From positions 76,707-140,706 of the forward strand of contig OY969885.1 of the NCBI GenBank assembly GCA_963704325.1: a stretch of 64,000 nt of DNA, read 5' to 3'. This DNA is from an uncultured Chloroflexia bacterium (lineage in GTDB: Bacteria > Chloroflexota > Limnocylindria > Limnocylindrales > CSP1-4). The notes beneath the pieces are model-generated. The model ran no database searches, was not told the DNA's origin, and saw only the letters and a list, made by a program, of their open reading frames with translations. This document shows positions 436 to 18,134 of this stretch, piece after piece. How positions within the stretch are numbered: the first letter of the stretch is position 1; the number at the start of each line of letters is the position of its first letter. The translations under genes were made by a program, and so were the position numbers.

Positions 436-3048
436 CTAGACCTCGGCCGGCTCCGCGTTCTCGGGTGACTTCGCCTGGTGGCGTTGCATGGCTGCCTTGC
501 GCGAGAGGTTGACCCTCCCCTGCCGGTCAACCTCGACCACGACGACCATGATCTCGTCGCCGACTGAGACCACGTCCTCCACGGTGGGCACGTGGTAGTC
601 GGCCAGCTCGCCGATGCGCACGAGACCTTCCTTGCCGGGCAGGATCTCGACGAACGCGCCGAAGGTCATGATCCGGGTCACCTTGCCCAGGTACAGACCG
701 CCGACCTCGACCTCACGAGTGATCCCTTCGATCATCGCGATGGCCGCACGCGACTTGTCGGCGTCGATCGCTGCGATCTCGACCGTGCCGTCGTCCTCGA
801 CGTTGATCTCTGTGCCGGTGTCCTCCTGGATCTTGCGGATCGTGGCGCCGCCCTTGCCGATGATGTCGCGGATCTTCTCCGGGTTGATCTTGATCGTGGT
901 GATGCGCGGCGCGAATGCCGACATCTCCTCACGGGCGCTGGGCAGAACCTCGGTCATCTTGTCCAGGATGAACAGCCGCGCGACGCGCGCCTTTTCCAGC
1001 CCGTCGCGAATGACCTGCTCGTTGATGCCCTCGACCTTGATGTCCATCTGGACGGCGGTGATGCCTTCGCTCGTGCCGGTCACCTTGAAGTCCATGTCAC
1101 CGAAGGAGTCTTCCTTGCCCAGGATGTCGGTCAGCACGGCGAACTTGCCGTCACTGCCTGACACGAGGCCCATTGCCGCGCCGGCAACCGGCGCCTTGAT
1201 CGGCACGCCGGCGTCCATCAGCGCGAGCGTCGAGCCGCACGTTGAGGCCATGGACGTCGAGCCGTTCGAGGTAACAGCCTCCGACACCAGCCGGATGACG
1301 TAAGGGAACTCCTCCGACGATGGCAGGACCGGCAGCAGCGCTCGCTCCGCGAGCGCGCCGTGGCCGATGTCGCGCCGCGAGGGCCCGCGCATCGGCTTGT
1401 TCTCACCCGTCGAGTACGGCGGGAAGTTGTAGTGATGGATGTATCGCTTGGACTCGTCGGGGCTGATCGTGTCGATGCGCTGGACGTCGGACGACGGTCC
1501 GAGTGTCGCGACAGTCAGCACCTGGGTCTGGCCGCGCGTGAACAGGGCGGAGCCGTGCGCGCGCGGCAGGAGGCCCGTCTCGACCGAGATCGGTCGGATG
1601 GTGTCGAGATCGCGGCCGTCCATGCGGATCCCCTCAGTGAGCACCAGCTCGCGCACGACCTTCTTCATCAGCAGGCCGGACAGGCCCTTCGAGAAGCGGG
1701 CCACCTTGCGCGCGGCGTCGATCTGCTTGGACGAATCGTCCGCGGAGGTGCCGTTGCGCAGCGAGCGGATCGCGTTGGCGACGGTCTCCTTGTACAGCTT
1801 GATTCGGTCGGGCAGGTCGCTGCCCAGGCGGATGAGCAATTGCGCGGTTGCCTCGGCGTCCGGCAGTGCGCGGTGGTTTGGCTCCACCTCGAGCGCGAAG
1901 AAGCGGGCCAGATCACCCAGTTTCAGGTCGCTGTCCGGGTGGGCCTCGCGCGCGATGACCAGCGTGTCCAGGTAGCGTCCCTGCTCGATCTTTTCGCCGG
2001 ACTCCAGCGCCGCCTCAATGAAGCCGATGTCGAAGCCCACGTTGTGGCCCACCAGCAGGGCGTCGCCTGCCCAGTCCATGAACGTCCGCGCGGCCTCCGC
2101 CGGAGTCGGCGCACCGGCCACGTCCTGGTCGGTGATGCCGTGCAGCTGGCGGCCGACGATCGGTCCGCCCGGATTGACCAGCGTTGACCAGCGATCCTCG
2201 ATCTGGCCGCGGACGACCTTCACGGCACCGATCTCGACCAGTGAACCCTGCTTGACGTCGCGGCTGGTTGTCTCGACGTCGAACACGACAAGCGGGCGAT
2301 CGCCCTTCATTGCATCGACGAGGTCGAGCACAGACTGGACGCTCGGCTCGATGTACGGCACGCGCTTGGCCTTGCCCACCTTCTCGCGCAGCTGCTCCTG
2401 CAGCTCGACGATCGGGACCAGGGAGCGGTGGCCGAACATGATCGCCTCGGCCATGACGGCCTCAGGCACGATCTTGGCGCCGGCCTCGACCATCATGATC
2501 GCGTCGCGCGTGCCGGAGACGACCAGGTCGATCTCCGAATCGGCCAGCTGGCTGTTGGTCGGGTTGAGCACGAGCTCACCGTTGATGCGGCCCACGCGGA
2601 CCGAAGCAACGGGGCCGGCGAACGGGATCTCGCTGATAGTCAGCGCGGCCGACGCGGCGATGGTGCCCAGGATGTCCGGATCGTTCTCCTGGTCGGTCGA
2701 CATGACCGTCAGCACGATCTGGACGTCGTCCTTGTAGCCCTCAGGGAAAAGCGGCCTGATCGGCCGGTCGGTCAGGCGTGCGGCCAGGATGGCTGCCTCT
2801 GACGGACGTGATTCGCGCTTGATGAAGCCGCCCGGGATCTTGCCCGCGGCATACATGCGCTCCTCGAACTCGATCGTCATCGGGAAGAAGTCGAGTCCCT
2901 GGCGCGGCTCGGACCGATTGGCCGTGCCGAGCAGCATTGTGTCGCCGTAGCGAATCGTGACGGATCCACCCGCGAGCAGGGCAAGCCTGCCCGTCTCGAT
3001 GGTGAGGGTGCGACCGGCGATCTCGGTCGTGAGCGTTGTGACTGGCAT
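436..3048 (-). CDS. pnp: Polyribonucleotide nucleotidyltransferase (PNPase) with an inserted DEDDh exonuclease domain
   Basis: 870-aa ORF with two RNase PH halves, a KH domain (IKINPEKIRDIIGKGGATIRKI) and an S1 domain (GKVTRIMTFGAFVEI). It sits immediately downstream of rpsO as in most bacteria. It is about 160 aa longer than typical PNPases because of the insert at aa ~252-410. Confidence 0.95.
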   Translation of the reverse strand: MPVTTLTTEIAGRTLTIETGRLALLAGGSVTIRYGDTMLLGTANRSEPRQGLDFFPMTIEFEERMYAAGKIPGGFIKRESRPSEAAILAARLTDRPIRPLFPEGYKDDVQIVLTVMSTDQENDPDILGTIAASAALTISEIPFAGPVASVRVGRINGELVLNPTNSQLADSEIDLVVSGTRDAIMMVEAGAKIVPEAVMAEAIMFGHRSLVPIVELQEQLREKVGKAKRVPYIEPSVQSVLDLVDAMKGDRPLVVFDVETTSRDVKQGSLVEIGAVKVVRGQIEDRWSTLVNPGGPIVGRQLHGITDQDVAGAPTPAEAARTFMDWAGDALLVGHNVGFDIGFIEAALESGEKIEQGRYLDTLVIAREAHPDSDLKLGDLARFFALEVEPNHRALPDAEATAQLLIRLGSDLPDRIKLYKETVANAIRSLRNGTSADDSSKQIDAARKVARFSKGLSGLLMKKVVRELVLTEGIRMDGRDLDTIRPISVETGLLPRAHGSALFTRGQTQVLTVATLGPSSDVQRIDTISPDESKRYIHHYNFPPYSTGENKPMRGPSRRDIGHGALAERALLPVLPSSEEFPYVIRLVSEAVTSNGSTSMASTCGSTLALMDAGVPIKAPVAGAAMGLVSGSDGKFAVLTDILGKEDSFGDMDFKVTGTSEGITAVQMDIKVEGINEQVIRDGLEKARVARLFILDKMTEVLPSAREEMSAFAPRITTIKINPEKIRDIIGKGGATIRKIQEDTGTEINVEDDGTVEIAAIDADKSRAAIAMIEGITREVEVGGLYLGKVTRIMTFGAFVEILPGKEGLVRIGELADYHVPTVEDVVSVGDEIMVVVVEVDRQGRVNLSRKAAMQRHQAKSPENAEPAEV
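1819..2295 (-). other. DnaQ/RNase T-like DEDDh 3'-5' exonuclease domain embedded in PNPase
   Basis: Exo I is VVFDVETTS, Exo II is LLVGHNVGFDIGF, and Exo III is NHRALPDAEATAQLL (H-x4-D). It is in frame with no stops, and PNPase helical-domain sequence flanks it on both sides. Confidence 0.8.
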
Positions 3049-3078: not shown

Positions 3079-3363
3079 TTAGCGGCGCAGTCCCAGGCTG
3101 CCGATAACGGCGCGGTAGCGGGCGTTGTCCTTGCGCATCAGATACGCAAGCAGCCGCCGCCGCTGCCCGACGAGCTTGAGCAGCCCTCGACGAGAGTGAT
3201 TGTCCTTGGGGAAGCTGCGCAGATGCTCGGTCAGTCCCTTGATCCGCTCCGTGAGGAGCGCGATCTGGACCTCCGGCGATCCTGTATCACCTTCCGATCG
3301 GGCGTAGTCCGCCACGATCCCTTCCTTGGTCTCCCGCGCCAGGGGCACCCGTTCCTCCAACAT
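3079..3363 (-). CDS. rpsO: 30S ribosomal protein S15
   Basis: Contains [24 protein letters not shown]...[20 protein letters not shown], a clear S15 signature. An alternative GTG start at 3348 is preceded by GGAGGA. Confidence 0.95.
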
Positions 3364-3435
3364 ATTCCTTGTCTTCTAGATCCGCGGAAGTCTAACAGTC
3401 ATCTGCCATTGACGCCGTGCTACCTTCCGCTGCGT

Positions 3436-4839
3436 ATGACGTCCACGGACGAGTCGGCCGCGTCTCGACGCGCGCTCACGACGTGGCCGCTCACGGGAAG
3501 CGCAGAGTTCGATCGGCTACCGGCGACATGGCGTGCGCGCACGGCGCAGGTGCTCGCAGCCGATTTCCAGCGTCACGTCTGCCAGGCCTGGTTCCCGCGC
3601 ACCGTGGACAGCGCCGCCGGTGGCTTCCTGTGCGATTTCGACCGCCGTTGGCGGCCGATCGGACGACAGGACCGCACGTTGGAATTCCAGGCGCGACAGA
3701 CGCGCTCGGCGGCGCGCATAGGTCGTGCGTTCCCGAAGCAGGCGAGTTGGGTCGAGGTGTCGCAGCACGGCTTCCGCTACCTGATGGAGGTCATGCACGA
3801 TCACGTGGAAGGCGGCTGGTACAACGCCGTCAATCGCGCTGGCGACCCGCTCATCGGCGGCTCGAAGCATGCCCACGGCACGGCCTACCTGATCGGCGGC
3901 CTCGCCTCCCTGCACCGGCTGACTGGTGACCCTGATGTGCTCGAGGCGGCAGTCGAGGCGTTCGAATGGCTGGAAGACACTCTGCACGACCCCGTCCAGG
4001 GCGGATACTTCGGGTGGGCGACCAGGGAAGGCAGGCCAATTCGATCCGTAGAGGACCTGCCCCCCGAAATCGCCGACATGCGCGTAGACCCGCTTGGTCA
4101 TGGCATCGGCTTCAAGGACGCGAACGTCCACTCGGACCTCCTCGACGCCTTCACTCAGCTCTACGCTGCCTGGCCCAACGAGCGCCTGAGATCGCGGATG
4201 GCCGAGGTCTTCGAGCTGGTCACGCGGCGCTTCGTCACTGCCGCCGGTTCCATGCACTACCTGGCTTATTCGGACTTCACGCCTGCGCCCACGCTCGAGC
4301 GATACGGCGACCCGAGTCAGACGGCGCCACGCCTGATCGTCGCCGGAGCGATGCTCGGCGCAGGCTCCGATGACATCCTGAGCCTCGTGCGCAGGATGTC
4401 GGACCACGTCGCCGAAGTTGCGTGGGACAGTGAGCGGGGAGGCTTTCGCGACGCCGGCCCCAGCGCCGCGCCCTTCCACCTCGCGGGACACTCGATGAGC
4501 CTGCCCACCAGGTCCTGGTGGGTGCAGACGGAGGCCATGAGGACGACCCTCCTCGTCGCGGCCATCTCCGACGACCCGGAGCCATACCTGCGCCGCTTCG
4601 ACGCCGCTCTGGAGTTCACGCGACGCGAGCTGTTGGACCACCGCCACGCTGGCTGGTACGCGGCCGCACTCTCCGATCAACCGCGCTGGCCGCCGCGTCC
4701 GCACCGTTCTCGCCGGCACAAGGGCAACATCTGGAAGGACGCGTCACACGAGACGGATTTCTACCTCGCTGCGCTGCGCATCCTGGGTGGAGTGGAGGCG
4801 GACGCAGCCCTGCCAGGCTCGCCAGATGCGGCGCATTAG
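3436..4839 (+). CDS. N-acylglucosamine 2-epimerase (AGE) superfamily protein (alpha/alpha six-hairpin)
   Basis: The ORF track starts at 3196 inside rpsO. The first plausible start is ATG 3436 (MTSTDES...). Motifs such as GGWYNAVNRAGDPL..SKHAHGTAYLIGGLASL and VQGGYFGWATREG resemble AGE/cellobiose-epimerase-type proteins. Confidence 0.7.
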   Translation: MTSTDESAASRRALTTWPLTGSAEFDRLPATWRARTAQVLAADFQRHVCQAWFPRTVDSAAGGFLCDFDRRWRPIGRQDRTLEFQARQTRSAARIGRAFPKQASWVEVSQHGFRYLMEVMHDHVEGGWYNAVNRAGDPLIGGSKHAHGTAYLIGGLASLHRLTGDPDVLEAAVEAFEWLEDTLHDPVQGGYFGWATREGRPIRSVEDLPPEIADMRVDPLGHGIGFKDANVHSDLLDAFTQLYAAWPNERLRSRMAEVFELVTRRFVTAAGSMHYLAYSDFTPAPTLERYGDPSQTAPRLIVAGAMLGAGSDDILSLVRRMSDHVAEVAWDSERGGFRDAGPSAAPFHLAGHSMSLPTRSWWVQTEAMRTTLLVAAISDDPEPYLRRFDAALEFTRRELLDHRHAGWYAAALSDQPRWPPRPHRSRRHKGNIWKDASHETDFYLAALRILGGVEADAALPGSPDAAH

Positions 4840-5354
4840 CCGACCCGGTCATTACGGGTCTGGTTCCAATGGATCGGCATGAGCCGATCGTGATCGTCAA
4901 CTCCCGGTGGCCCCTCCAGCACATCGCGGTCGAGCGTTACCCAGGCATGGCCGCGCAATGCGCCTCCGGGGCGGTCGAACCATTCCGCGCCGATGCGAAG
5001 CTGCATGTCATGTGCGCCGGCATCCAGAAATCGATACATCGACAGGGCGCGCACGTAGCAGGTGTCGCGGCCGCGCAAGCCCGGAAGGCGCAGCCACGGT
5101 TGCCGAAGCCGCGCAATTCGCTGCGCGCCGGCGCGCGAGTCAATGGCGCTGGGCCGGGCCGCACTTCTCAGGCCGCCGAGGAAATCCGTCAGGTGCGTCC
5201 GCTCGACGTTGCCCGACAGGCGGATCACAAACCAGCCGATGCGCAGCGACCAGTAGACGTCAGCCGGCGAGCGATAGGCGTGCGCCAAGCGCAGCGCGGC
5301 GCCCCACGGAGTCCACCACGGCGCAAGTCGGTGGAAGGAGCGGGCCACGATCAC
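4836..5354 (-). CDS. Lasso-peptide B2-like transglutaminase-fold cysteine protease (McjB C-terminal-like)
   Basis: 172 aa. The Cys motif RDTCYVRALSMYRFL and the His motif LRGHAWVTLD have the spacing typical of PF13471-type B2 proteins. The GTG start at 5354 overlaps the upstream GT2 stop as GTGA. Confidence 0.75.
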   Translation of the reverse strand: MIVARSFHRLAPWWTPWGAALRLAHAYRSPADVYWSLRIGWFVIRLSGNVERTHLTDFLGGLRSAARPSAIDSRAGAQRIARLRQPWLRLPGLRGRDTCYVRALSMYRFLDAGAHDMQLRIGAEWFDRPGGALRGHAWVTLDRDVLEGPPGVDDHDRLMPIHWNQTRNDRVG

Positions 5355-7222
5355 CGTGCGCTGGGTAGCTGAGCGTCCGCTGCCCGCCAGCGTTCAATCT
5401 CGCTCGGGCTCCAGAACGTTCGCGCGAAGCCCAGCCGTTGCGCCACGCGCTTGACGAACGTGCCGCGTCGCACGAGGCCCTCGTCGCCCATGGGCCGGAG
5501 CAGGGCCCCGAGTCCCACCGGGCCAAGTGCAAGCCAGTTGCGCAGCTCGTCGAGTGGGCCCCACTCGAGTTCGTCCTCGTAGCGGCGGAAGAACTGCGCG
5601 TAGCCCTTCCCGTAGCTGACCTGCTGCGCCCAGTACGCTCGCCAGCTCTGTCGGTGGCGGTGGTGGACGACAGCCCGCGGTGCGAAGGGAAAAGCGCCGC
5701 CAACGGCGCGCAGCAGGCGGGTGTGGAGATCGGCTCCCTCGTACGAGTCGAAGCGCGCATCAAATCCGCCCACCTCCAGCAGGGCCTGGCGGCGGTACAT
5801 GGCGTTTGAGGTGGGTGCCCATGGGTATCGCTTGTGAGCAAGGTGGCGATCGGCACGCAGCCCGCCGCTCGCGTCGACGAAGCGCGCCGCCGCCGTGGTC
5901 GAGCGATAGCCGATCGTCATACCCGCCGCGCCCAGCGCCGGATGAGCCGCCGTGGTCGTTTCTGCAACGGCTCCGAGCAGTGCCCGCAGCCAACCCCTGC
6001 TGGGGACGCAGTCCGCGTCCGTGAAGGCAATCCAGGTGCCCTGCGCGGACCGGATGCCGGCATTGCGCGAACTGCCTGCCGCGCGTCCCGAGCCCCGACT
6101 TGAGCTGCGCAGCACGGTTGCCCCGGAGCTCGCCGCTATCTCTGCGGAAGCATCGCGATTGCGCTCGTCAACAACCACGAGCACCTCGTAATCCGATCGC
6201 GCCAGGCTCTGTGCAAACAGGGCCGACAGGCAGTCACCCAGCGTGCCGGCGGCGTCGCGGACGGGAATCACGACCGACACGCTCGGCGGCCCGGAAGAAC
6301 GCGGCGCGCTCACGCGCTCGCGTCCCGCCGTGCCTCGTCGAACCCGTGCCAGAAGCTGCGGTCCCACATGGCCAGGTAGGCATCGAACTCGGCTGTGTCG
6401 GAGTCGATCTGCCCCAGCCGCAGCCGAGTCGAAGCTGCCATCGCATTCAATCGCCGCTGGGCGCTGCGATAGCCGCGCTGGACGCGATAGCGCAGGCTCC
6501 AGGTCCAGGAAGTCAGCATGGCGAGCGTAGAGGTGAGCCATTGCCGAGCCGTACTGGCGCGCCTGTGCCCAGAGCTCCGCGTCCGATTCGCGATCCTGGT
6601 GGAAGGCCAGCGCAGCTTCGATCAGCTCGATCCGCGGCCCGAACATGTCACGCACACGGAACGAGAACTCCACGTCTTCGCCTGCCTTGAGCTCCTGTGG
6701 CCACCCACCAACGGCAAGCGCCACGCTACGCCGGACGGCCATGTTGCGCGTGTTCGCGAAGGGCAGCTCGCGAGTTTCCAGCGGGCGCCGGGCGACGTTG
6801 AGCCCGTAGCGAGCCGCGAAACGCTGCGCGGCAGTGCGCGGCGGAAAGCTCGCCAATCCCCCGGCAACGATGTTGATTTCAGGGTCGGCGAAGGGTGCGG
6901 CTATCTCGCGCAGCCAGTTGCGGGCCGGAACGCAGTCGGCATCGAGCAGTGCCAGCACTTCGCCGCGCGCCTCATGCATGCCTAAATTCCTGGCCGCGGA
7001 GGGACCGCGCTCGTTCTCCTGCAGCACGCGCAGCCCCGGTATGGCGGCGCCCTGGGCAAGCTCGCGGCTGCCGTCTGTCGAGCCGTTGTCCACGATCAGG
7101 TATTCGGCCGCGGCGCCGCTCAACGGTCGCTGGGCGGCGAGCGCGGCGAGCAGGGCGGGCAGAGTACGCATCGCGTTGAGCATCGGCACGATGACAGAGA
7201 CGGCCGGCTGCGGGCCGATCAC
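5351..7222 (-). CDS. Glycosyltransferase family 2, two GT-A modules in one uninterrupted ORF (probably two genes, see findings)
   Basis: Module 1 has VSVIVPMLNA...YLIVDNGSTDGS...LDADC. Module 2 has VSVVIPVRDA...TDADC. The start was moved from 7315 to GTG 7222, which overlaps the kinase stop as GTGA. Third-position GC indicates a frame switch near 6495-6520 and an internal GTGA junction at 6310-6313. Confidence 0.7.
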   Translation of the reverse strand: MIGPQPAVSVIVPMLNAMRTLPALLAALAAQRPLSGAAAEYLIVDNGSTDGSRELAQGAAIPGLRVLQENERGPSAARNLGMHEARGEVLALLDADCVPARNWLREIAAPFADPEINIVAGGLASFPPRTAAQRFAARYGLNVARRPLETRELPFANTRNMAVRRSVALAVGGWPQELKAGEDVEFSFRVRDMFGPRIELIEAALAFHQDRESDAELWAQARQYGSAMAHLYARHADFLDLEPALSRPARLSQRPAAIECDGSFDSAAAGADRLRHSRVRCLPGHVGPQLLARVRRGTAGRERVSAPRSSGPPSVSVVIPVRDAAGTLGDCLSALFAQSLARSDYEVLVVVDERNRDASAEIAASSGATVLRSSSRGSGRAAGSSRNAGIRSAQGTWIAFTDADCVPSRGWLRALLGAVAETTTAAHPALGAAGMTIGYRSTTAAARFVDASGGLRADRHLAHKRYPWAPTSNAMYRRQALLEVGGFDARFDSYEGADLHTRLLRAVGGAFPFAPRAVVHHRHRQSWRAYWAQQVSYGKGYAQFFRRYEDELEWGPLDELRNWLALGPVGLGALLRPMGDEGLVRRGTFVKRVAQRLGFARTFWSPSEIERWRAADAQLPSAR

Positions 7223-8052
7223 GCGAGGAGCTCGTGCAGTGAGTCGAGGTAAGCGGGATTCGCGTATGCGTCGTTGTAGAGGGCGACTCGGTAGCCGGTC
7301 GCCTGCTCGGCACAACCCACGATGGCCTGGATGATCGATGTGGCCAGGCTTCGGTCGCTCGGAATGACCGTCTGGCGCATGAGCGCCGCGATGCGCTCCG
7401 GACGTTCCAGTGGGGTAACGGCGACCCCTCCGCGCCCACCGCGCCGCTCGAGCTCGAGCAGCACCACCGGTTCCATCGTGAGCGCGCTGCCGTGGGGCCA
7501 GAGCGTCCCGATCGGCATTCTCCGCTTGGGGGTCCAGGCGGAGTATTCCGGCAACGCGGCAACCGCTTGAAGCTCGGGAAACCAGGTAGCGGCTGCCGGG
7601 TCGATGTTCATGAACGAAGTCAGGCCGGATACGCGCCGCGGGCCGTTCATGGCCAGCAGCAGCTTGTCGTCGCCGAGCGAGCGCCAGCCGCGGCGCACCA
7701 GGGCGAGGGTGAACGTCGTCTTGCCGCCGCCGCTGGTGGCGCAGACGATTACGCCACGTGAGCCGTCCGTGAGCCCCGCCGCGTGCAGTGGGACCCAGCC
7801 GGAGCGCCGCCAGCCCGTGGTCAGCACCAGACTCAGCGTGTCCTCGATCTCAGGCCAGGCGCCGGCATCCACCAGGGACCCGGGCAAGCGCAGGGTCCAG
7901 CTCTCGCCATGCGCTCCGAAGCTGCCCGACAGCACTCCCCCGCTGCTGGTCGTGGCGCGCAGTCCGCCCGGCGCCGGATCGACCAGCATCTGCGCGCAGA
8001 CCAGGTAGCTTCCAACTGCCGGATCGCCGTCCGTGACGGACTCCACGTGCAC
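7219..8052 (-). CDS. HPr kinase-like (HprK-related) serine kinase; the N-terminus appears to lie in another frame upstream
   Basis: WVPLHAAGLTDGSRGVIVCATSGGGKTTFTLALVRRGWRSLGDDKLLL is a P-loop in the context seen in HprK-related and lasso-tailoring kinases. The GTG start at 8052 has no SD. Codons with coding-like composition continue upstream (8233 to ~8060) in the +1-related frame. Confidence 0.75.
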   Translation of the reverse strand: MHVESVTDGDPAVGSYLVCAQMLVDPAPGGLRATTSSGGVLSGSFGAHGESWTLRLPGSLVDAGAWPEIEDTLSLVLTTGWRRSGWVPLHAAGLTDGSRGVIVCATSGGGKTTFTLALVRRGWRSLGDDKLLLAMNGPRRVSGLTSFMNIDPAAATWFPELQAVAALPEYSAWTPKRRMPIGTLWPHGSALTMEPVVLLELERRGGRGGVAVTPLERPERIAALMRQTVIPSDRSLATSIIQAIVGCAEQATGYRVALYNDAYANPAYLDSLHELLA

Positions 8053-8204
8053 ATCTAACGAGACCTGCCACGGACGTCGTCTCCGGCCAGGGCATGTCGT
8101 ACAGCGCGAAGTTCGCGGCGATGAGGTCGGCGACTGGTCCCGCCGGGGCTGAAACTGCTATCTGCAGCGGCCCCGCCAGCGTGCCCCATTTGACGGGCGC
8201 GGCG

Positions 8205-8624
8205 CTACTCGGCGAGCGGGATGCTGGGGTCAAATGCGCTGACGATCACGCGTTGCAGTGGTTCGGCCTGTCGCTCTACCTGGACCGGCTGCCACTCGGG
8301 CGGAGCCTGGCCGTCTATGTTCGCCGGGTCGGCCATGGGCTCCAGGAGACGCTCGTCGAGCATCAACTGCAGTGCTGAGCGCAAGCCGGCCATATCCTCG
8401 TCCGGCGCGCCCCACGAGCGTGCCCGCGATTCCGCATGGTCGTAGGTGCAGCCGTCCTCGAACAGCTGGACCACGGACCAGCCCGATGGATTGAGCAGGT
8501 AGAAGTACTTGCTCTCCAGGTCGAGCAGAAGGGCGCCGTGATCGAGGACAGTCGCGACAACATCGGGCCGCAGCGCGAGACCGACCGATGGTGCGTTTCC
8601 CGGATCCTCTGCCAACCTGTCCAA
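8205..8624 (-). CDS. PqqD-family protein (RiPP recognition element / lasso B1-like) with a C-terminal extension
   Basis: LRPDVVATVLDHGALLLDLESKYFYLLNPSGWSVVQLF matches the PqqD/RRE pattern. TTG starts occur at 8624 or 8615, preceded by GGGAGGG. About 50 extra C-terminal residues are present. Confidence 0.75.
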   Translation of the reverse strand: MDRLAEDPGNAPSVGLALRPDVVATVLDHGALLLDLESKYFYLLNPSGWSVVQLFEDGCTYDHAESRARSWGAPDEDMAGLRSALQLMLDERLLEPMADPANIDGQAPPEWQPVQVERQAEPLQRVIVSAFDPSIPLAE

Positions 8625-8715
8625 GCCCTCCCACTAAGCGGCCGTAGTCTAACCGCGTGGGCTCTCACCCAGTCCGCAGCGGCGGGCCTGCGCGACGCCG
8701 AAACGCGACCGGTGG

Positions 8716-9915
8716 TCAGCGTGGCTTGGACAGCAGCCGGTTGCCATACTTTCGTGCCAGGCGGATGGGTCGGGTCAGCGCGTAAAGCGGAAACAGCAGG
8801 CGGGGCAGGCGCAGCGCTTCCCAATCGGCGCCGCTCGGCCGGAAGGCGACGTTGAGCAGATAGCGGATCTGATCCGAGGAGCGTTCACGCATACGTGCGT
8901 GAAAGACGAGGGAGTCGAAGCGCCGCGGCTGCGGATTGAAGAGATCCCTTTTGACGCTTTCCGTCAGGCGCCGCGCGGTACCGTCCTGGCCCGCACTTCG
9001 GGCGACTGCGCCGGGCAGGTCCGCGGCGCACAGTTCCGCAGCGAGCAGCAAACCCAGGTGAACCATGCGCAGGGAGCCGCGCGCTCGCGACCCTTCGATG
9101 AGGCGCGCCCAGCCGCCGACGTCAACCAGCCTGACCATAAGCGCGATGTCCAGGATCCACGCCACGCGCTCCCAGCGGTGCTTGGAGCCGTGAATGCACA
9201 GCGCTTCCAGCTCGTCCACTGGATCGAGCGCCCAGATCTTCGTTCTCATCAGCTCGACCTGCGTCAATCGCTGCCACAGGTGCTCGGCCGCCCGGCGCTC
9301 CGAGTAGTAGGTCGGCACTACGGCGCTGTGCAGCTCGAGCCACAGCCCGTCACTGTCGCGCACCATCTCCAGCTCACCCTGATGGTCGACGTAGACCTCC
9401 TGCTCGCTTTCGCTCATCCGCTTCTCTGTTCGAAAGCCCATGTCGCTCATCACGTCGCGCGCCGCCAGAAGCTCGTGGCGGCGAACCAGGATGTCAAGGT
9501 CGTAGAACTGGCGCAGGGACACGTCGCCGTAGGCGCGGTGGGCGAGCACCGGACCCTTCCAGGGGGCAGCCGTGATGCCGGTCGCCGCAAGCTTGCGCAG
9601 AGTCGCCGTCAGCTCGCCGGCAAGCCACAGGTTGCGCCGCGTATTGGCCGTGTACGCAGTCTGGAGATCTGTGGCAACCAGCTCGGGTAGCAGCGCTTTG
9701 TGCGCCTCGAGCGACCGCCAGGCGACTGGTGCCAGCGCGTGCTGCATGATCAGGCGAAGGAACTCGGCCCAATCTGCGCGCGACATGTCCAGCGGAGGTC
9801 GCATCGCCGCGTCTTCGCCGGCTGCGAATGACCGCGCGCACCAAAGCAGAAGATCCGGCGCAGGGCGTGGCGCCTTCGCCGATTGGGTAGCATCCCCGTG
9901 TGGCCCGATCAACAC
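8716..9915 (-). CDS. Uncharacterised nucleotidyltransferase family protein (PF14907 / NTP_transf_5-like)
   Basis: LLLWCARS...WKGPVLAHRAYGDVSLRQFYDLDILVRRHELLAARDVMSDMGF is typical of this family. The longest ORF starts at ATG 9978 but would overlap the divergent sulfotransferase. GTG 9915 is proposed instead; the start is uncertain. Confidence 0.7.
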   Translation of the reverse strand: MLIGPHGDATQSAKAPRPAPDLLLWCARSFAAGEDAAMRPPLDMSRADWAEFLRLIMQHALAPVAWRSLEAHKALLPELVATDLQTAYTANTRRNLWLAGELTATLRKLAATGITAAPWKGPVLAHRAYGDVSLRQFYDLDILVRRHELLAARDVMSDMGFRTEKRMSESEQEVYVDHQGELEMVRDSDGLWLELHSAVVPTYYSERRAAEHLWQRLTQVELMRTKIWALDPVDELEALCIHGSKHRWERVAWILDIALMVRLVDVGGWARLIEGSRARGSLRMVHLGLLLAAELCAADLPGAVARSAGQDGTARRLTESVKRDLFNPQPRRFDSLVFHARMRERSSDQIRYLLNVAFRPSGADWEALRLPRLLFPLYALTRPIRLARKYGNRLLSKPR

Positions 9916-9965
9916 GGTCGCAGCGTAGCGGGGGCGCGGCTCAGGAACGTGGTGCGCGGCGTCGG

Positions 9966-10907
9966 GTGCCCGACGCATTCCTCATCGGCACGCCGCGTGC
10001 CGCGACGACCTCGTTTTACCGCGCACTGGGCGATCATCCCTCCATCTACGCCCCCGCGTTGAAGGAAGCCTGCTTCACCTGCCCTGACATCGACCCCGGC
10101 CAGACCCAGAGTCAGACCAGGTACTTCTCTGACGAAGCCGAGTACCTGCAACTCTTCGCGGCGTCAGGGCCGGAGCAGCTCGTTCTGGAGGGCTGCATGT
10201 ACAACATCTATTCGCCTCGCGCCCCCGGACTCATCCGCGCACTCAACGGTGCCGCCCGTCTACTGGTCCAGCTCCGCGATCCCATTGAGCAGATGTATTC
10301 GAACCACGCGCTCAAGCTGATCATGGTCGATTCGACGCGCACCTTCGAGAATGAGCTTGAGGTTCAGGCTGACGTCCGAGGCGACCGCGCGGGGCAGCCG
10401 TTGAACATGAGGGACTACGACCTGCGCGACAAGGCGATTGCCGCGCCCGGTCTGCGCCGCTTCATCGACGAGTTTGGGCGCGATCGCATACACGTCAGCC
10501 TGTACGAGGATTTCGCTACGGATGCCCACTCGGTGCTGCGATCTGCGTTCCGCTTCCTGGGCGTGGATGAGGGCCATGTCGCGACGGTAGGCGTCCACGT
10601 ACCCAATCGCGTCGCACGGAGTGACACGGTCAATCGGACGATGGCATCGCAGCGTGTGATCGCCGGCGCCAAGAGCGTCGTGCCGGATCGACTCCACCCG
10701 GTGGCCCGCCGCCTGGTCGCGGCTGCCTTTCGGCTCAACCGACGGCGCGTTCAACGCGCGCCATTGGATCCCGCTCTGCGCGACCGCCTGCGGGCCGAGT
10801 TTCGCGCAGAGGTTGCAGAGCTCAGCGACCTCACCGGGATCGACCTCCATGCGCGCTGGTGGAGTGCGCCGCCCAAGCCGCTTGAGCCGTCCGCAGGTGC
10901 GCGCTAG
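9966..10907 (+). CDS. Sulfotransferase family protein
   Basis: The 5'-PSB-like loop is PDAFLIGTPRAATTSFYRAL and the 3'-PB-like motif is LVQLRDPIEQMYSNHA. The ORF track start is GTG 9900. GTG 9966, directly before the PSB loop, avoids a divergent overlap. Confidence 0.7.
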   Translation: MPDAFLIGTPRAATTSFYRALGDHPSIYAPALKEACFTCPDIDPGQTQSQTRYFSDEAEYLQLFAASGPEQLVLEGCMYNIYSPRAPGLIRALNGAARLLVQLRDPIEQMYSNHALKLIMVDSTRTFENELEVQADVRGDRAGQPLNMRDYDLRDKAIAAPGLRRFIDEFGRDRIHVSLYEDFATDAHSVLRSAFRFLGVDEGHVATVGVHVPNRVARSDTVNRTMASQRVIAGAKSVVPDRLHPVARRLVAAAFRLNRRRVQRAPLDPALRDRLRAEFRAEVAELSDLTGIDLHARWWSAPPKPLEPSAGAR

Positions 10908-11860
10908 CGACCTTCTGGGGATCCAGCCAGCAGCGAGCGCGCTCGGACGGCGTCACGGTCCATCTGGCGGATCAACGGCGCGGCCGACCCGAACTTTCGC
11001 TCGCCGCGCAGGCGCCGAACAAACTCCACTCGCAGTCGCTGTCCGTACAGGTCTTCGTCGATATCGAACAGGTGGACCTCAAGCACGCGCGCTCCGCTCG
11101 CGCCAAACGTTGGCCGCACGCCAAGCGACGCCACTCCGGGCGCCGTGCGGCCGGGGTCGAGCGGGTCGCGACCGCTCCAGCCGGCCCGGACCGCGTAGAT
11201 GCCGTCCGGCGGCAGCGCCACTTCCTGATCAAAGGCGAGATTCGCCGTTGGGTAGCCCAGCGTCCGGCCGCGCTGATCGCCTCGCACGACACGGCCGATG
11301 ACCGCGTACGGCCGGCCCAGCAGTCGCCCGGCATCGGCCAGCCGCCCGTGGGCGAGCAGGTTGCGCAGGCGGGTGCTGGAAACCCTGGTCCCGCCGCCGG
11401 TCAGGTGGGTAACTTCGATGACGTCCAGTCCCAGCTGCGGAGCCAGTCGACGGATCTCGGGCAGCCCGCCGGAGCGATCGCGTCCAAAGGCGGACTCCTC
11501 CGTCATCACCAACGCGACCATCTGGCGACCAGTGCAGGCACGATCCAGGAAGGACGCAGCAGTCTGGCCAGCAAAGGCCAGATCAAAAGGCTGCTCGACC
11601 ACGAAGTCCACGCCGAGCTGCCCCAGGCGGGCCAGCTTCTCTGCGGGATCGCACAACAGTGCCGGCGCGTGGCCGCGCAGCACCGCTGCAGGGTGGGGCA
11701 CGAAGGTCATCACGACCGACTTCGCAGCGCGCTCGCGGGCGGCCAGGGTGAGCGACTCGATCACGCGGCGGTGTCCGCGATGAACGCCGTCGAACATGCC
11801 GATCGCGAGGCAGTAGCGGATGCCGGCGGGCAGCTCGTCCACGGCCCCCAGCCGCCTCAC
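10904..11860 (-). CDS. ribF: Bifunctional riboflavin kinase / FMN adenylyltransferase
   Basis: Contains GMFDGVHRGHRRVI, GYPTANL and a riboflavin kinase C-terminal half. It is adjacent to truB. Confidence 0.9.
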   Translation of the reverse strand: MRRLGAVDELPAGIRYCLAIGMFDGVHRGHRRVIESLTLAARERAAKSVVMTFVPHPAAVLRGHAPALLCDPAEKLARLGQLGVDFVVEQPFDLAFAGQTAASFLDRACTGRQMVALVMTEESAFGRDRSGGLPEIRRLAPQLGLDVIEVTHLTGGGTRVSSTRLRNLLAHGRLADAGRLLGRPYAVIGRVVRGDQRGRTLGYPTANLAFDQEVALPPDGIYAVRAGWSGRDPLDPGRTAPGVASLGVRPTFGASGARVLEVHLFDIDEDLYGQRLRVEFVRRLRGERKFGSAAPLIRQMDRDAVRARSLLAGSPEGR

Positions 11861-12789
11861 GGCGCGAAGACCTTCTCCGGGCGCAGCAGGCCCTCGCCGA
11901 ACCGAGCGATGGCGACGAGACGTCCGGCGCTGTCGAGCACCTTGACCAGTCCCTCCCCCGCTGAGCTCTCCGCGCGGCGCAGCTGCTGGCCGCGCATGAA
12001 CGGGCCGAGCTCCTCGTCCGTGAGTGTCAGCTCCGGGAAGTCGATGCCCTCATCCATTGGCAGCAGCAGCTCGCGCGCCCTTCCCTCGGCAAGCGCGGTG
12101 CGCACCTCGTCGAGCGTGTGCGCGGCGTCAATCCTGAACGGGCCACTCGCGATCCGCGTCAGCGCCCCAAGGTAGGCGCCGCTGCCCAGCGCCGCGCCAA
12201 GGTCGCGCGCGATGGCGCGCACGTACGTGCCAGCCGAGCAATGGACCTCGATCGTGGCCGTTGGGCGAGCAGGGTCGGTGTCAGACCACTCCATTACCTC
12301 CAGCCTGCTGATCGTCACTCGTCGCGCTCTGAGCTCGGGCTTCTCGCCGTGGCGCGCCAGCTCGTACGCCTTGCGGCCCGCAATGCGCACCGCCGAGTAG
12401 TCCGGCGGAACCTGCTCTATCTCGCCGCGCAGCCCGGCCAGCGCAGACTCGACCTTGTCACGCGTGGGAGCCGGCGCGTCGCCCGGTGTCAGCTCGCCAT
12501 CGAGGTCGTCGGTGGTCGACCGCGCCCCAAAGCAGACCACGGCGCGGTACTCCTTGGCATCGGTCATGTGGTACTCGACAAGGCGCGTCGCGCGGCCGAC
12601 GAACACCGGCAGCACGCCAGCGGCAAAGGGATCCAGGGTCCCGCCGTGGCCCACGCGGCGCACGCCGGTCAGGCGGCGGACAAGCGCGACGATGTCGTGC
12701 GACGTGGGGCCGGGCTCCTTGGCCACGACCACGATACCGTCGAGCACCGGTCGTGCGGCACGCGCCTCGGAGGACGGGTCAGCCACCAG
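11857..12789 (-). CDS. truB: tRNA pseudouridine(55) synthase
   Basis: Contains GIVVVAKEPGPTSHDIV and GHGGTLDPFAAGVLPVFVGRATRL. The start was set to GTG 12789, close to the upstream stop; GTG 12747 is also possible. Confidence 0.9.
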   Translation of the reverse strand: MVADPSSEARAARPVLDGIVVVAKEPGPTSHDIVALVRRLTGVRRVGHGGTLDPFAAGVLPVFVGRATRLVEYHMTDAKEYRAVVCFGARSTTDDLDGELTPGDAPAPTRDKVESALAGLRGEIEQVPPDYSAVRIAGRKAYELARHGEKPELRARRVTISRLEVMEWSDTDPARPTATIEVHCSAGTYVRAIARDLGAALGSGAYLGALTRIASGPFRIDAAHTLDEVRTALAEGRARELLLPMDEGIDFPELTLTDEELGPFMRGQQLRRAESSAGEGLVKVLDSAGRLVAIARFGEGLLRPEKVFAP

Positions 12790-13822
12790 CCCGGTCGAGC
12801 ATCTCGCGCGCGACCCCCAGCACGGATCGAGTCGCCTCGGCGAGCGGTGCGGGGACTGTCGCGCCGGCGGCGCGCGCGTGGCCACCGCCGCCGAACGCGC
12901 CGGTCAGCTCCGTTGCGTCGTAGCCGCCCTCACGCGTGCGCACGCTGATCTTGGTCTTGCCGCCGTCCACTTCGCGCAGCAGCACGACGAGCTCGCCGGT
13001 GGCCGACTGGCTGAGCAGATCGCTCAGGCCCTCGGCATCCTCCGAGGCTGCGCCCGTTGCCCCGTAGTCGGCAGCCTGGACGCTGCTCCACACCAGCCGC
13101 CCGCCCCGATCGTCCTCCATCCGGCCCAGCACGCGTCCGAACAGCTTCAGCTGGCGATTGGGCTTGGTCCGATAGAGCAGCCGCGCGGTGTCCGCCAGCG
13201 GAGCACCATTGGCCACCAGCTCGGCCGCGACGCGCAGCGTGCGCGGCGTGACGTTGGGGTGCTGGAAGTTGGCCGTGTCGATCACCACGCCGGCCATCAG
13301 GTTGGCCGCGATCGCTCCGTCAGAAGCGTCGAGCGGCACGCCCAGCGCGGGCATGAGCAGGGTGTTCATCTCGCACGTTGCGGCGGCGGTGGCGTCTATC
13401 CAGTCGACGGCGCCGAAGCCCGTGTTCGAGACATGGTGATCGATGTTGACGATGGGCACGCGACTGAAAAGCTCCGCGTTGCGCCCGAGCACGCCGCCGA
13501 TGCGGGCAAGGTCGCCGCAGTCGCCGACCACGATCAGGTCGTAGGCGCGGCCGGGCTCAGGGTCCTGGCGGAAGCGCTCGATGCGCGGCATGAACGAATA
13601 CATCGGCGGGACCTGGTCGCTGCATACCGGCGTCGCCCGTCCGCCCAGCTGCTCCACGGCGAGGGCGAGCGAGAGGGCCGATCCCAGGGCGTCCGCCTCC
13701 GGGTTCTCGTGGCACACGGTCAGCACGTCGTTCGCGTTGCGGATGCGCTGGACGACTTCGGCCGGCACGGCGCCGATGTCCTGGGCGGTCAGCGATTGCA
13801 GGTCCGGGCGTGACTCACCCAT
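12779..13822 (-). CDS. DHH/DHHA1 phosphoesterase (NrnA-like oligoribonuclease / pAp phosphatase)
   Basis: Contains HENPEADALGS, VGDCGD, NIDHHVSN and GGGHARAAG motifs. It sits between rbfA and truB, as in actinobacteria. Confidence 0.85.
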   Translation of the reverse strand: MGESRPDLQSLTAQDIGAVPAEVVQRIRNANDVLTVCHENPEADALGSALSLALAVEQLGGRATPVCSDQVPPMYSFMPRIERFRQDPEPGRAYDLIVVGDCGDLARIGGVLGRNAELFSRVPIVNIDHHVSNTGFGAVDWIDATAAATCEMNTLLMPALGVPLDASDGAIAANLMAGVVIDTANFQHPNVTPRTLRVAAELVANGAPLADTARLLYRTKPNRQLKLFGRVLGRMEDDRGGRLVWSSVQAADYGATGAASEDAEGLSDLLSQSATGELVVLLREVDGGKTKISVRTREGGYDATELTGAFGGGGHARAAGATVPAPLAEATRSVLGVAREMLDRAGG

Positions 13823-14241
13823 CAGGTCGTCTCGCTGCCAGGGCCGCCCGGACCGCGTGTCGGGCTTGGCAGCGTTTCCGTGGTTCGCTCAAGATCGCCC
13901 GTGCCGCCCTGCTCCAGCTCGTCGAGGATCTGGAGCACGCGCGTGCCGCGCTCGGCGCTGTCGTCCTCCCTGATGTGGAGGATCGGGATGCGCCTCAGGC
14001 GCAGCCGGCCCAGGCGCTGGCGAACGAAGGGCATTGCGTGCGAAAGGGCACGCAAGGTCTGGCGCCGCTCATCTCGCTCACCGATGACCGACACCCACAC
14101 ATTTGCGTGACTGAGGTCAGACGACACGTCGACGTCGGTGATGGTCACGAAGCCGATGCGCGGATCGTTCACCTCGCGCCGGATGACCTCGGTGATCTCT
14201 TCGCGCAGCAGCTCATCGAGGCGCGCCGTGCGCTCGCTCAT
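13822..14241 (-). CDS. rbfA: Ribosome-binding factor A
   Basis: RLDELLREEITEVIRREVNDPRIGFVTITDVDVSSDLSHANVWVSV; located downstream of infB. Confidence 0.9.
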   Translation of the reverse strand: MSERTARLDELLREEITEVIRREVNDPRIGFVTITDVDVSSDLSHANVWVSVIGERDERRQTLRALSHAMPFVRQRLGRLRLRRIPILHIREDDSAERGTRVLQILDELEQGGTGDLERTTETLPSPTRGPGGPGSETT

Positions 14242-14245
14242 TGTC

Positions 14246-16135
14246 CTAGGCCGAAATTACGCGCGAGACCATCTGCTGCGTGAAGCACTCGATGATGTCG
14301 CCTTCCTGCAGGTCGTTCGTGTCGTCCAGGCCGATACCGCACTCGTATCCGGTGGCAACCTCACGCACGTCGTCCCGGAAGCGGCGCAGCGACTCGATGC
14401 GATCTGTCGCGACGAGCTTGCCGCCGCGGTAGACGCGCGCGCTGCCGCGGACGATGCGCCCCTCTGTGACGTAGCACCCGGCGATGACGTTGCGCCCCGC
14501 CTTAAAGGTCTGGCGCACCTCAGCGCGACCCTCCACGACCTCGATCTCTTCTGGCTCGAGCAGGCCGCTCAACGCCGCGCTCATCTCCTCGGTCAGCTTG
14601 TAGATGATGTCGTACAGGCGTACGTCGACGCTCTCCGCCTCTGCGGTGCGGCGTGCCTGCGGATCGAGCTTGGTGTTGAAGCCGACCACCACCGCGTTTG
14701 AAGCCGACGCGAGCAGGATGTCGGTATCGGTGATGTCGCCGGTGCCCTCGTGGAGCATGTTGATGCGCACCTCTTCGGTCTGCACCTGCTCCAGCGCGTG
14801 GCGAATGGCGCCCAGCGAGCCCTGTACGTCTGCCTTGAGAATGACGCGCAGCTCCTTGGTCTGGCCGGCCTGGATCTGGCGATACAGGTCCTCCAGCGTG
14901 GCGCGGCCCTGCTGCTCCGGCGTGGCGCCCGCTCGGCGCTGCTCGATCATGACGCGTGCCGTCTTCTCGTCCGGCACGGCGCGCAGGATGTCTCCCGCGG
15001 CAGGCACCTCGGACAGCCCGAGCAGCACTGCCGGGCTGGCTGGGCCGGCCTTGGTGATCCGCTCGCCGCGGCTGTTCTGCAGCGCGCGAACGCGGCCGTA
15101 CGTGTCGCCCACGACGACGATGTCGCCTACCTTGAGAGTGCCCGTCTGGACCAGGACAGTGGCCACCGGGCCGCGTCCCTTGTCCAGCTCCGCTTCCACG
15201 ACGGTGCCCACGGCCGATCGCTTGGGATTGGCCTTCAGCTCCTGCACGTCGGCCACGATCAGGATCGTGTCGAGCAGATCCTTGATGCCCGTGCCGTCGC
15301 GCGCGCTGACTGCCACGAGCGGCGTATCGCCGCCGTACTCCTCGATGATCACGCCGTGCTCGGATAGCTCCGTCTTGACGCGATCCGGATTCGCGTCAGC
15401 CTTGTCCATCTTGTTCAGCGCCACCACGATCGGCACCTTGGCCGCGCGGGCGTGGTCGATCGCCTCCAGCGTCTGGGGCATCACGCCATCGTCCGCAGCC
15501 ACCACCAGCACGGCGATGTCCGTCACCTTCGCGCCGCGCGCGCGCATGGCGGTGAACGCCTCGTGGCCCGGTGTGTCGAGGAAGACGACACGCCGACCGT
15601 CCTGCTCGATCTCGCTCGCGCCTATGTGCTGGGTGATGCCGCCGCGCTCAGCGGCAGCCACCTCCGACGTGCGGATCGCGTCGAGCAGGCTGGTCTTGCC
15701 GTGGTCAACGTGGCCCATCACGGTCACGATCGGCGGCCGGGGGACGAGGTTGCTCGCTTCGTCCTCCTCGAACAGGATCTCCTTGGTTGCCTCCGCGACT
15801 GGCGCATCGCCGTTGCCCTCTACCTGCTCAGGCACGCGCGCTTCGGCCACCTCAAAGCCCAACTCGCCGGTCACCAGCGACGCCGTGTCGCGGTCGAGTG
15901 GCTGATTGATGTTGGCGAAGATGCCACTCTTGATCAGCTCGCGGATGATGTCCGCCGGGTTGACCGTGAGCAGCTCGGCCAGCTCCTTGACGGTGATCGA
16001 GTTCGGTATATCGACCTGGCCGCGGGCGTGAGGGTCAAGGGTCTGAACCGCCGAGTCGCCGGATCCCTGGTCGGGTCGGCGCGGGGGCTTGCGCGGGCCG
16101 CGCATGTTGCGCGTGCCGCTTCTACTGCGTGCCAT
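14246..16135 (-). CDS. infB: Translation initiation factor IF-2 (short N-terminus)
   Basis: GTPase motifs [20 protein letters not shown] and NKMD. ATG 16135 is preceded by GGGAGG and overlaps the ylxR end. The longer ORF from 16231 would lie inside ylxR. Confidence 0.93.
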
Positions 16136-16460
16136 CAGGGCCTCCCCCCAAGTTGCTCGCCGTGCCCGGCGGGCCGGTCTCGAGTCGAGCGCGAACATCA
16201 GCCGGCAGGGCGACTGACAACGCGCGCTCAATTGCTTTCTTCTTGAGTGCTGTCGTCCAGCATGAGCCGTCGGCGCACAGGTATGCGCCGCGACCGGCGG
16301 CGCGCCCGGACATGTCGAACATCACCGAGGCGTCGGGCGCACGCACGATGCGCACGAGGTCACGCTTCTGCCGCTCCGCGCGACAGGAAACGCAGGTGCG
16401 TACCGGGAAGCGCCGCGGAGGAAGCTGCGGCGCCGCCTCGACCGCGTGGCCCGTTGTCAT
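16122..16460 (-). CDS. ylxR: YlxR/DUF448 family RNA-binding protein
   Basis: RTCVSCRAERQKRDLVRIV...GRGAYLC; located between nusA and infB. Confidence 0.85.
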   Translation of the reverse strand: MTTGHAVEAAPQLPPRRFPVRTCVSCRAERQKRDLVRIVRAPDASVMFDMSGRAAGRGAYLCADGSCWTTALKKKAIERALSVALPADVRARLETGPPGTASNLGGGPDGTQ

Positions 16461-17995: not shown

Positions 17996-18050
17996 GCTGC
18001 GCCCTCCTTTCGCTGAGCCGTTATTCCCCCGTTTGCGCGGGCTCCTCCGC

Positions 18051-18078
18051 ATAAATAAACGTGGGGGTCACCCACGTT
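18051..18078 (-). terminator. Terminator-like hairpin plus U-tract in the nusA 5' leader (candidate attenuator)
   Basis: The minus strand reads AACGUGGG-UGACC-CCCACGUU followed by UAUUUAU. This is an 8-bp stem and a conspicuous AT run in a high-GC genome, about 55 nt upstream of the nusA GTG. Confidence 0.45.
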
Positions 18079-18104
18079 CTGAGGCGGCCGAATAACCGGC
18101 CCGA

Positions 18105-18134
18105 AGTATACAACGCGCCTCGACTCCATCTCAA
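18105..18134 (-). promoter_or_regulatory. Sigma-70/SigA-like promoter candidate for nusA
   Basis: The minus strand reads TTGAGA, an 18-nt spacer, then TATACT. The predicted TSS is ~100 nt upstream of the nusA start, with the leader hairpin between them. Confidence 0.4.

Follow-up and report, generated by a model that had tools for sequence, protein, structure and literature searches.

A 64-kb stretch of contig OY969885.1 from an uncultured Chloroflexia bacterium (64,000 nucleotides, hereafter the window; G+C content approximately 67%) carries a minus-strand gene cassette reminiscent of lasso peptide biosynthesis, with a divergently transcribed sulfotransferase gene at one end. The cassette encodes a recognition element (RRE) protein of the kind that binds the precursors of RiPPs (peptides made by the ribosome and modified after translation), and this account centres on the C-terminal end of that protein. 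The genes and features concerned are the following:

8205..8624, minus strand: B1/PqqD-like RRE protein, extended at its C-terminus (249 homologues, of which some carry PF05402)
8208..8300, minus strand: candidate cis leader and core, 'PEWQPVQVERQAEPLQRVIVSAFDPSIPLAE', at the end of the RRE protein
8716..9978, minus strand: PF14907 (NTP_transf_5) nucleotidyltransferase (NTase)-fold protein, PsmN/LppN-like (Pfam E 9.7e-52)
7219..8233, minus strand: HprK/ScmC-like P-loop kinase, frame-broken, with its main open reading frame (ORF) at 7219-8052 (weak PF07475 and TIGR04352/04355 matches)
6310..7222, minus strand: first family 2 (GT2) glycosyltransferase, GT2a, frame-broken (PF00535; its start, GTG 7222, overlaps the kinase stop)
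5351..6313, minus strand: second GT2 glycosyltransferase, GT2b (PF00535 and PF13632; starting within a GTGA overlap at GTG 6313 and ending in an overlap with the B2 start)
4836..5354, minus strand: B2-like transglutaminase-fold cysteine protease (PF13471, 36.4 bits, cutoff 26)
9966..10907, plus strand: divergent sulfotransferase (PF13469; 3'-phosphoadenosine 5'-phosphosulfate (PAPS) loop 'FLIGTPRAATTS')

A preliminary description of this stretch had read the cassette as a PF14907 NTase, a PqqD-like RRE, an HprK-like kinase, GT2 glycosyltransferases, a B2-like protease and a sulfotransferase, and this gene set was upheld by profile searches together with homologue and structure comparisons. The GTGA junctions at 7219-7222, 6310-6313 and 5351-5354 were likewise all found at the positions claimed for them. 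The RRE protein is 136-139 residues long (136 from the probable start codon, TTG 8615) and consists of an RRE at approximately residues 7-95, a variable linker and a C-terminal tail. The window protein itself has no Pfam match, while some of its homologues match PF05402, and its PqqD-like character was borne out by structural comparison. The AlphaFold2 (AF2) model, predicted from a 38-sequence alignment with a predicted local distance difference test score (pLDDT) of 86, is a winged helix-turn-helix with the topology beta1-4, alpha1-3, beta5, and its best Foldseek matches were the lasso B1 proteins TbiB1 (5v1v, E 7e-4) and TfuB1 (6jx3), followed by other RREs. The RRE family profile also matched TfuB1 (E 3e-4) and TbiB1 (E 3e-3), over positions 7-95 only.

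The C-terminal extension carries a W-x-x-P-x-[ILV]-type leader-like motif (WQPVQV in the window), followed by a tail ending in PLQ[RK]VIVSAFDPSIPLAE. The landmarks of the window protein are Trp108 (8292-8294), which opens the motif, here in the form W-x-P-x-x-V, an invariant Ser126 (8238-8240) and the C-terminal Glu136. Among 156 proteins, the 29 C-terminal residues follow the pattern W-[EQS]-[PAT]-[VP]-x-[LIFV]-E-[RK]-Q-[AP]-E-P-L-Q-[RK]-V-I-V-S-A-F-D-P-S-I-P-L-A-E, the distance from the Trp to the Ser of SAFDP is exactly 18 residues in all but one (155 of the 156), and 153 terminate in SAFDP[STG][IVLF]P[LVM][AV]E. In the AF2 model, the pLDDT is approximately 95 up to about residue 110 and approximately 52 over the last 16 or so residues, and an extra short strand is predicted at residues 113-115, right after the W motif. 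In published structures, the leader residues directly following WxxPxL extend the RRE beta-sheet (PMC13381572), and the predicted strand and the low-confidence tail give the same picture. We infer from the secondary structure and confidence values of the model, the sole basis used here, that the RRE may bind its own leader-like motif in cis.

The gene for the tail also runs into that for the kinase: 8205-8236 (minus strand) is a dual-coding stretch, in which the kinase start, TTG 8233, lies within the tail codons for 'AFD' and the two genes overlap by 29 nt. The conserved kinase N-terminus 'M[TI]PAS[RL]SPSS' is thus the +1-frame reading of 'FDPSIPLAE' and its stop codon. Nevertheless, the tail and its spacing are also kept in two related loci, L004 and L005, whose RRE and kinase genes do not overlap, which argues for constraint at the protein level. 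A 100-residue variant of the RRE family, P0246, is without helix 3, the linker and the W motif and retains 'ERQAEPLQQVIVSAFDPSIPLAE'; it may represent a real deletion or an assembly artefact.

The preliminary description had seen no precursor at this locus, a view that we could not maintain, since the RRE protein bears this conserved leader-like motif and tail. In 36 loci, the region from -6 to +7 kb around the kinase gene contained no conserved small ORF, and small ORFs with a [YW]xxPx[LVIAFY] motif upstream of the RRE gene occurred in three of these 36, which is chance level. A word-index search for stand-alone tail peptides with the last 47 residues returned only two candidates, both N-terminally truncated RRE proteins. 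Besides, a tail-only phmmer search of 1.84 billion representatives gave 12 matches, all of them RRE C-termini; one tail-only match of 33 residues, P0247, sits 45 nt from a contig end.

The enzymes of the cassette were compared with their orthologues in L001, a syntenic locus, and with family profiles. The NTase is 58% identical to its L001 orthologue in a single frame by tblastn, contains the motif 'YDLDILV', which represents DxD, and belongs to a family present in almost every related locus; its real start is probably GTG 9915. GT2b likewise aligns in a single frame with 59% identity. The B2-like protein passes PF13471 and reaches 31.9 bits against the NCBIfam model lasso_biosyn_B2 (NF033537), slightly below the cutoff of 33. 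Its catalytic residues are the Cys in 'DTCYVRAL' and the His in 'GHAWV', and among 33 family members the Cys is kept in at least 90% and GHAW in at least 97%, so that its earlier designation as B2-like holds. The divergent sulfotransferase was also confirmed by PF13469; its ORF opens at GTG 9900, with GTG 9966 as the likelier start. Among approximately 40 loci, this family occurs solely in the window and its close Chloroflexota-type relatives L001-L003 and L006, and it is an accessory rather than a core gene.

Kinase homologues are 320-340 residues long and begin 'MIPASLSPSS...GPL.I.L.AP...LYDV.W', and PF27840 (ScmC) was found on them. A His, a Lys and an Asp-Asp pair are invariant in the kinase alignment and also occur in the window ORF, and lasso-tailoring kinases have a His-Lys-Asp-Asp motif in common (PMC9266682). 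The kinase resembles the HprK-related kinases A and B (TIGR04352 and TIGR04355) and ScmC (PF27840, TIGR04249) in its P-loop fold like the HprK C-terminal domain and in its PqqD-family partner. In contrast to these families, it scores far under their cutoffs (33.9 and 33.4 bits against 200 for TIGR04352 and TIGR04355, and 19 against 125 for TIGR04249), and only the broad Pfam family PF27840 was matched. With 33.9 bits against the 200-bit cutoff of TIGR04352, it falls outside 'HprK-related kinase A', a catalogued family of the kind to which the preliminary description had pointed.

No SGGxDS PP-loop motif, the hallmark sought for a lasso cyclase, is encoded in any frame of the 64-kb window, and none was found in six frames of 765 kb comprising the window and 42 related loci. 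Asn_synthase was absent from the Pfam lists of L001-L005 and of the ten largest other ORFs of the window. An ABC exporter is also missing from the window, and both absences had been correctly noted. The locus combines a B2 Cys protease and a B1/PqqD-type RRE with neither a cyclase nor a separately encoded precursor that would hold a leader and a ring-forming core. The module does not represent a lasso-cluster fragment, and, as no cyclase is present, the cassette is not a member of the lasso peptide family.

The same six-gene module was recovered in approximately 40 related loci, nearly all of which share the order RRE, kinase, GT2, GT2, B2, NTase according to ORF and jackhmmer annotation. A total of 202 kinase homologues (E <= 1e-3) came from metagenome-assembled genomes, and a scan of a genome collection added 36 loci, again all from such genomes. 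The hosts are uncultured and belong to at least ten phyla; the 36 scanned loci derive from Chloroflexota, Eremiobacterota/Vulcanimicrobiota, Acidobacteriota, Acidimicrobiia, Gemmatimonadota and Desulfobacterota, and further from Binatia, Myxococcota, Spirochaetales, Planctomycetota and 'proteobacteria'. While the infB...pnp context of the window is common to L001-L003, the module lies elsewhere in L004, on a 1.5-Mb contig, alongside extra GT2s, an SDR and a Polysacc_synt_3 flippase. In L005 (14703-20969), it directly adjoins a phage-type integrase, two transposases and a TrwC relaxase fragment, which suggests that the module is horizontally mobile. Accessory genes occur in subsets of the loci, namely an SDR in seven, a PMT_2-like gene in four and an ABC exporter in five, plus extra GT2s. 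In addition, L004 and L017 lie on the same 1.54-Mb contig (contig_16991), which carries two copies of the module approximately 800 kb apart; the L017 copy is rearranged, with a GT2 and the B2 gene several kb from NTase-RRE-kinase-GT2. Extra kinase paralogues are located near the module in some Vulcanimicrobiota, as in L016 (528-1487) and L029 (3724-5597, two in tandem beside a second NTase).

Cyclase-less clusters of related content have been shown experimentally in Bacillota, where those for linear polyphosphorylated peptides (LPPs) combine an RRE gene with genes for an HprK-like kinase and a PF14907-type NTase (Popov et al., Nat Commun 2026, PMC13381572). LPP precursors are encoded by separate genes, are 35-200 residues long and combine variable cores with the motif YxxPxVLxHQxIxFETxxS, whose Ser (core Ser3) is polyphosphorylated by LppK; the RRE-dependent peptidase cuts after the Thr, three residues before this Ser, and lasso and LPP RREs bind [Y/W]xxPx[L/V/I/A/F/Y] (PMC13381572). 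The authors state that LPPs and paeninodins are restricted to Bacillota, with end products and roles yet to be established, and LPP clusters also lie within capsule loci (PMC13381572). The cassette is like the LPP clusters in the absence of a cyclase and in its discrete lasso-type RRE, HprK-like kinase (frame-broken in the window) and PF14907-type NTase. Both associate with glycan genes, the Tyr-to-phospho-Ser spacing of 18 in LPPs equals the Trp-to-Ser spacing of 18 here, and RRE-dependent leader cleavage in LPPs parallels what we propose below.

In contrast, the LPP peptidase is a SipW-like serine signal peptidase, whereas a B2-type Cys protease is encoded here and no peptidase S26-type gene was found in the cassette or in the annotated loci L001-L005. 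The LPP precursor is separate, whereas the motif and the invariant tail of approximately 14 residues are here fused to the RRE. Two GT2s are core here, and the MsbA-like exporter that is core in LPP clusters has its counterpart in only five of approximately 38 loci. LPPs are described as confined to Bacillota, while the present module occurs in Chloroflexota, Eremiobacterota, Acidobacteriota, Gemmatimonadota, Desulfobacterota, Binatia and others. With a different peptidase, no separate precursor and usually no exporter, the cassette falls outside the LPP family in its present definition, though it works most like lasso and LPP systems.

The split B1/B2 peptidase, the His-Lys-Asp-Asp kinase, the PsmN-type NTase and the Trp-type leader motif (WxxPxL) are also shared with the paeninodin and pseudomycoidin pathways, in the latter of which the PF14907-type protein PsmN is required for a hexose on the phosphate (PMC6993621). 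Unlike those pathways, the cassette lacks an Asn-synthetase-like cyclase and a separate precursor, and in most loci an exporter as well; moreover, the candidate acceptor Ser has an internal position instead of a C-terminal one, and the last residue of the peptide is Glu. A substrate carried by a pathway protein has a parallel elsewhere among RiPPs. In borosins, whose autocatalytic precursors are enzyme-core fusions, the peptide that becomes modified forms the C-terminal tail of a protein of the pathway and has no small gene of its own, the fusion partner being the methyltransferase itself; the tail-borne core would be alike here, and the partner would instead be a non-catalytic recognition domain. 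Literature searches, which beyond the cited papers did not extend to full texts, turned up no paper on a natural fusion of RRE and precursor in a lasso-like cluster.

On balance, we read the cassette as a cyclase-less relative of the paeninodin-type lasso/LPP machinery whose substrate is the C-terminal extension of its own RRE protein, a reading that we hold to have an even chance of being right. The winged helix-turn-helix RRE would bind in cis the leader-like aromatic motif that follows the variable linker (WxxPx[ILV] in most phyla, WQPVQV here), and this would present the otherwise disordered downstream tail to the partner enzymes. By analogy with the systems above, the HprK/ScmC-like kinase would (poly)phosphorylate the invariant Ser126, 18 residues past the Trp, and the PF14907 NTase-fold enzyme and the two GT2s may put one or more sugars on phosphate or hydroxyl groups. 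In the window and in L001/L006-type loci, further groups may be attached by the sulfotransferase and an epimerase. The RRE would recruit the B2-like Cys protease, as happens in lasso pathways, and the protease would cut between the motif and the Ser, around PLQ[RK]-V-I-V, which is 14-16 residues past the Trp according to the rulers of paeninodin, LPP and Tbi, and a linear peptide of approximately 12-14 residues, (VI)VSAFDPSIPLAE, would be released.

The preliminary description had likewise proposed a linear, decorated product made without a cyclase. That part is supported by the self-contained cyclase-less module in approximately 40 loci and by the LPP precedent, but the sulfotransferase proved not to be core, and the precursor, held to be missing, is probably fused to the RRE. 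The element that would be really new is the natural fusion of RRE, leader and core, for which we see at best an even chance and perhaps a little less. That the cassette represents an undescribed RiPP-type architecture, in which a self-presenting precursor is processed by a lasso-type B2 protease to an invariant phospho-glycosylated 12-14-mer or a peptide-primed glycan in at least ten, mostly uncultured, phyla, is a tentative proposal that we would rate somewhat below even.

Several observations weigh against this reading. An invariant 'core' is atypical for RiPPs, and a C-terminal tail that is conserved and disordered could just as well serve for docking or autoregulation. In the window protein and in 106 of the 156 sampled proteins, the Pro stands at W+2 (WxPxxh) instead of the canonical W+3. 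Apart from the aromatic motif and the Ser spacing, the tail is unlike the LPP leader, and the match in spacing could be a coincidence. Both cleavage and modification of the tail are argued by analogy, and the kinase and GT2a are frame-broken in the window. ABC exporters do adjoin the module in five loci, which counts in favour of the reading, while most of the approximately 38 loci have none.

The frame breaks bear first of all on the copy in this genome. By tblastn with the L001 kinase, residues 1-48 are encoded in frame -1 and residues 55-336 in frame -2: the first 50 or so codons (from TTG 8233 to approximately 8087) lie in one frame and 8067-7219 in another, with the break between 8087 and 8067. 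GT2a is split in the same manner: frame -1 covers residues 1-235 (7219-6515) and frame -2 residues 240-298 (6501-6325), and the break falls near 6501-6515 ('gac c tgg'). The true C-terminus of GT2a lies in the second of these frames and runs to TGA 6310-6312, within the GTGA with which GT2b starts. Both breaks are of 1 nt. The ORFs as first drawn thus had to be revised, as the kinase N-terminus lies in another frame and the 654-residue GT2-GT2 ORF (5351-7315) is an artefact of the 1-nt indel in GT2a. Two candidates disappear with this correction. A 44-residue ATG ORF at 8055-8189 (minus strand), considered as a precursor, proved to be the third frame across the displaced N-terminal coding region of the kinase. 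The GT2s had also appeared to match the MftF equivalog (284.6 against a cutoff of 280), which was rejected because the score adds two partial GT2 matches across the two domains of the frameshift-fused ORF; no MftA-E-type genes were found near the cassette.

Accordingly, the cassette may here be a decaying remnant in which the kinase and GT2a have become pseudogenes, irrespective of the family's role in other genomes, and we take this to be only a little less probable than not. The two breaks fall within a 2.8-kb part of the cassette, whereas none was found in 16 other genes compared with L001, and ten large housekeeping ORFs appear full-length. (This survey relied on tblastn against L001 and Pfam on the ten large ORFs; a GC3-phase Viterbi segmentation was too noisy.) By our arithmetic, two random indels over the approximately 35 kb of surveyed coding sequence would both hit the 6.1-kb cassette with P of approximately 0.03. 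The window is also without the PMT_2-like gene and the extra GT2 that L001 and L006 carry, and L039 demonstrates that remnants occur: this Syntrophobacteraceae locus (9977-11496) retains the kinase and the B2-like gene alone, the RRE, GT2s and NTase being absent, and is probably a degenerate remnant. On the other side, the remaining four cassette genes are intact, neither break brings an early stop into a main domain, and the 2.4-Mb contig may stem from an indel-prone long-read assembly. In L004, a related long contig, the citrate synthase gene is broken into three ORFs and the Ldh gene into two (17491-19744), which indicates that such long assemblies carry indel errors and bears on the two breaks of the window. 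Taken together, cassette-specific decay is mildly favoured over random assembly error. With two of its six genes frame-broken, the function of this copy is doubtful, and it may be inactive unless the breaks are assembly errors.

A second alternative concerns the family as a whole. The tail might be no substrate but a built-in pseudo-leader or docking element, which autoinhibits the RRE or tethers the kinase, the GT2s or B2, while the true substrate is a trans precursor or a cellular protein encoded at another locus, or is non-peptidic, for instance a glycan or lipid intermediate of an envelope polysaccharide pathway. Invariance to the last residue is what a binding motif would display, and the accessory genes of the subsets are of polysaccharide type (extra GT2s, SDR, PMT_2-like, Polysacc_synt_3 flippase, epimerase), which recalls the LPP clusters in capsule loci, whose final product is yet to be established (PMC13381572). 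Nevertheless, no other conserved ORF or motif-bearing peptide occurs within -6/+7 kb of the kinase gene in the 36 loci, the module shifts between contexts as a unit, and the Ser is placed exactly at the spacing of the LPP phospho-acceptor. We would also argue that a catalytically intact leader peptidase and a kinase require a peptide substrate presented by the RRE, and we consider a mere docking role unlikely. A genuine lasso pathway, with its cyclase and perhaps its precursor encoded elsewhere in the genome, is highly improbable: although a B1-like RRE and a B2-like protease constitute the lasso leader-peptidase pair, and the paeninodin ruler (W at -15) would by our estimate give a core VIVSAFD... 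with a ring-compatible Asp at position 7, neither SGGxDS in 765 kb nor Asn_synthase in the annotated loci or the large ORFs of the window was found, many phyla carry the module as a compact, self-contained unit, a Val/Ile first residue and a 14-residue core would be atypical, and cyclase-less relatives are now documented.

Around the cassette, housekeeping genes lie on both sides, as had been noted before, together with one further gene on the B2 side:

16231-10904, minus strand: infB-rbfA-DHH-truB-ribF, the housekeeping block on one flank
3436..4839, plus strand: AGE-family (GlcNAc 2-epimerase-like) gene, PF07221, convergent on the B2 gene
3363-436, minus strand: rpsO-pnp, the housekeeping block on the other flank, beyond the AGE-type epimerase gene

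The cassette sits within an otherwise conserved nusA-infB-rbfA-DHH-truB-ribF / rpsO-pnp cluster (window 3079-16231), and L001 (1-17684) has the same flanks in the same orientation. The local order from the sulfotransferase to B2 is repeated in L006, the comparison of housekeeping flanks covering the window and L001. The shared flanks and orientation in L001 and the shared local order in L006 suggest that the cassette is an old insertion in this Chloroflexota lineage. The AGE-family gene is 49% identical to its neighbour in L001 (match at 3523-4794) and is kept in L001-type loci; it is possibly an accessory of the cassette. The ten largest other ORFs of the window are all housekeeping by Pfam (NusA, ProRS, Dxr, DUF3352, Ffh, FakA-like, pseudouridine synthase, RecG, PriA and IleRS). 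In addition, the PNPase gene (436-3048, minus strand) has a DEDD/RNase T-type exonuclease domain inserted between both RNase PH domains, with the motifs 'VVFDVETT' and 'HNVGFDIGF'; the L001 orthologue, 86% identical, is annotated as RNase_PH, RNase_T, RNase_PH, KH and S1.

If the C-terminal extension is indeed the substrate, the logic of cyclase-less linear phosphopeptides would, with a different leader peptidase, reach beyond Bacillota into numerous uncultured phyla of soil and sediment. B1/B2/kinase clusters with 'no precursor' would also be explained, as the precursor may form the end of the RRE gene and be missed by RODEO/antiSMASH-style tools that look for small ORFs. Besides, such a fusion would provide a clean system in which to study how RREs hand substrates to kinases and proteases, and the invariant peptide would be a concrete mass-spectrometry target for the end products and the role of this enzyme set. 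The near-invariance of the tail across phyla and the polysaccharide-type accessory genes make it more likely that the product serves a conserved physiological purpose, as a signal or as a molecule linked to the envelope or to glycans, than that it is an arms-race antibiotic, and under the fusion reading this invariance would imply a conserved physiological role for the product.

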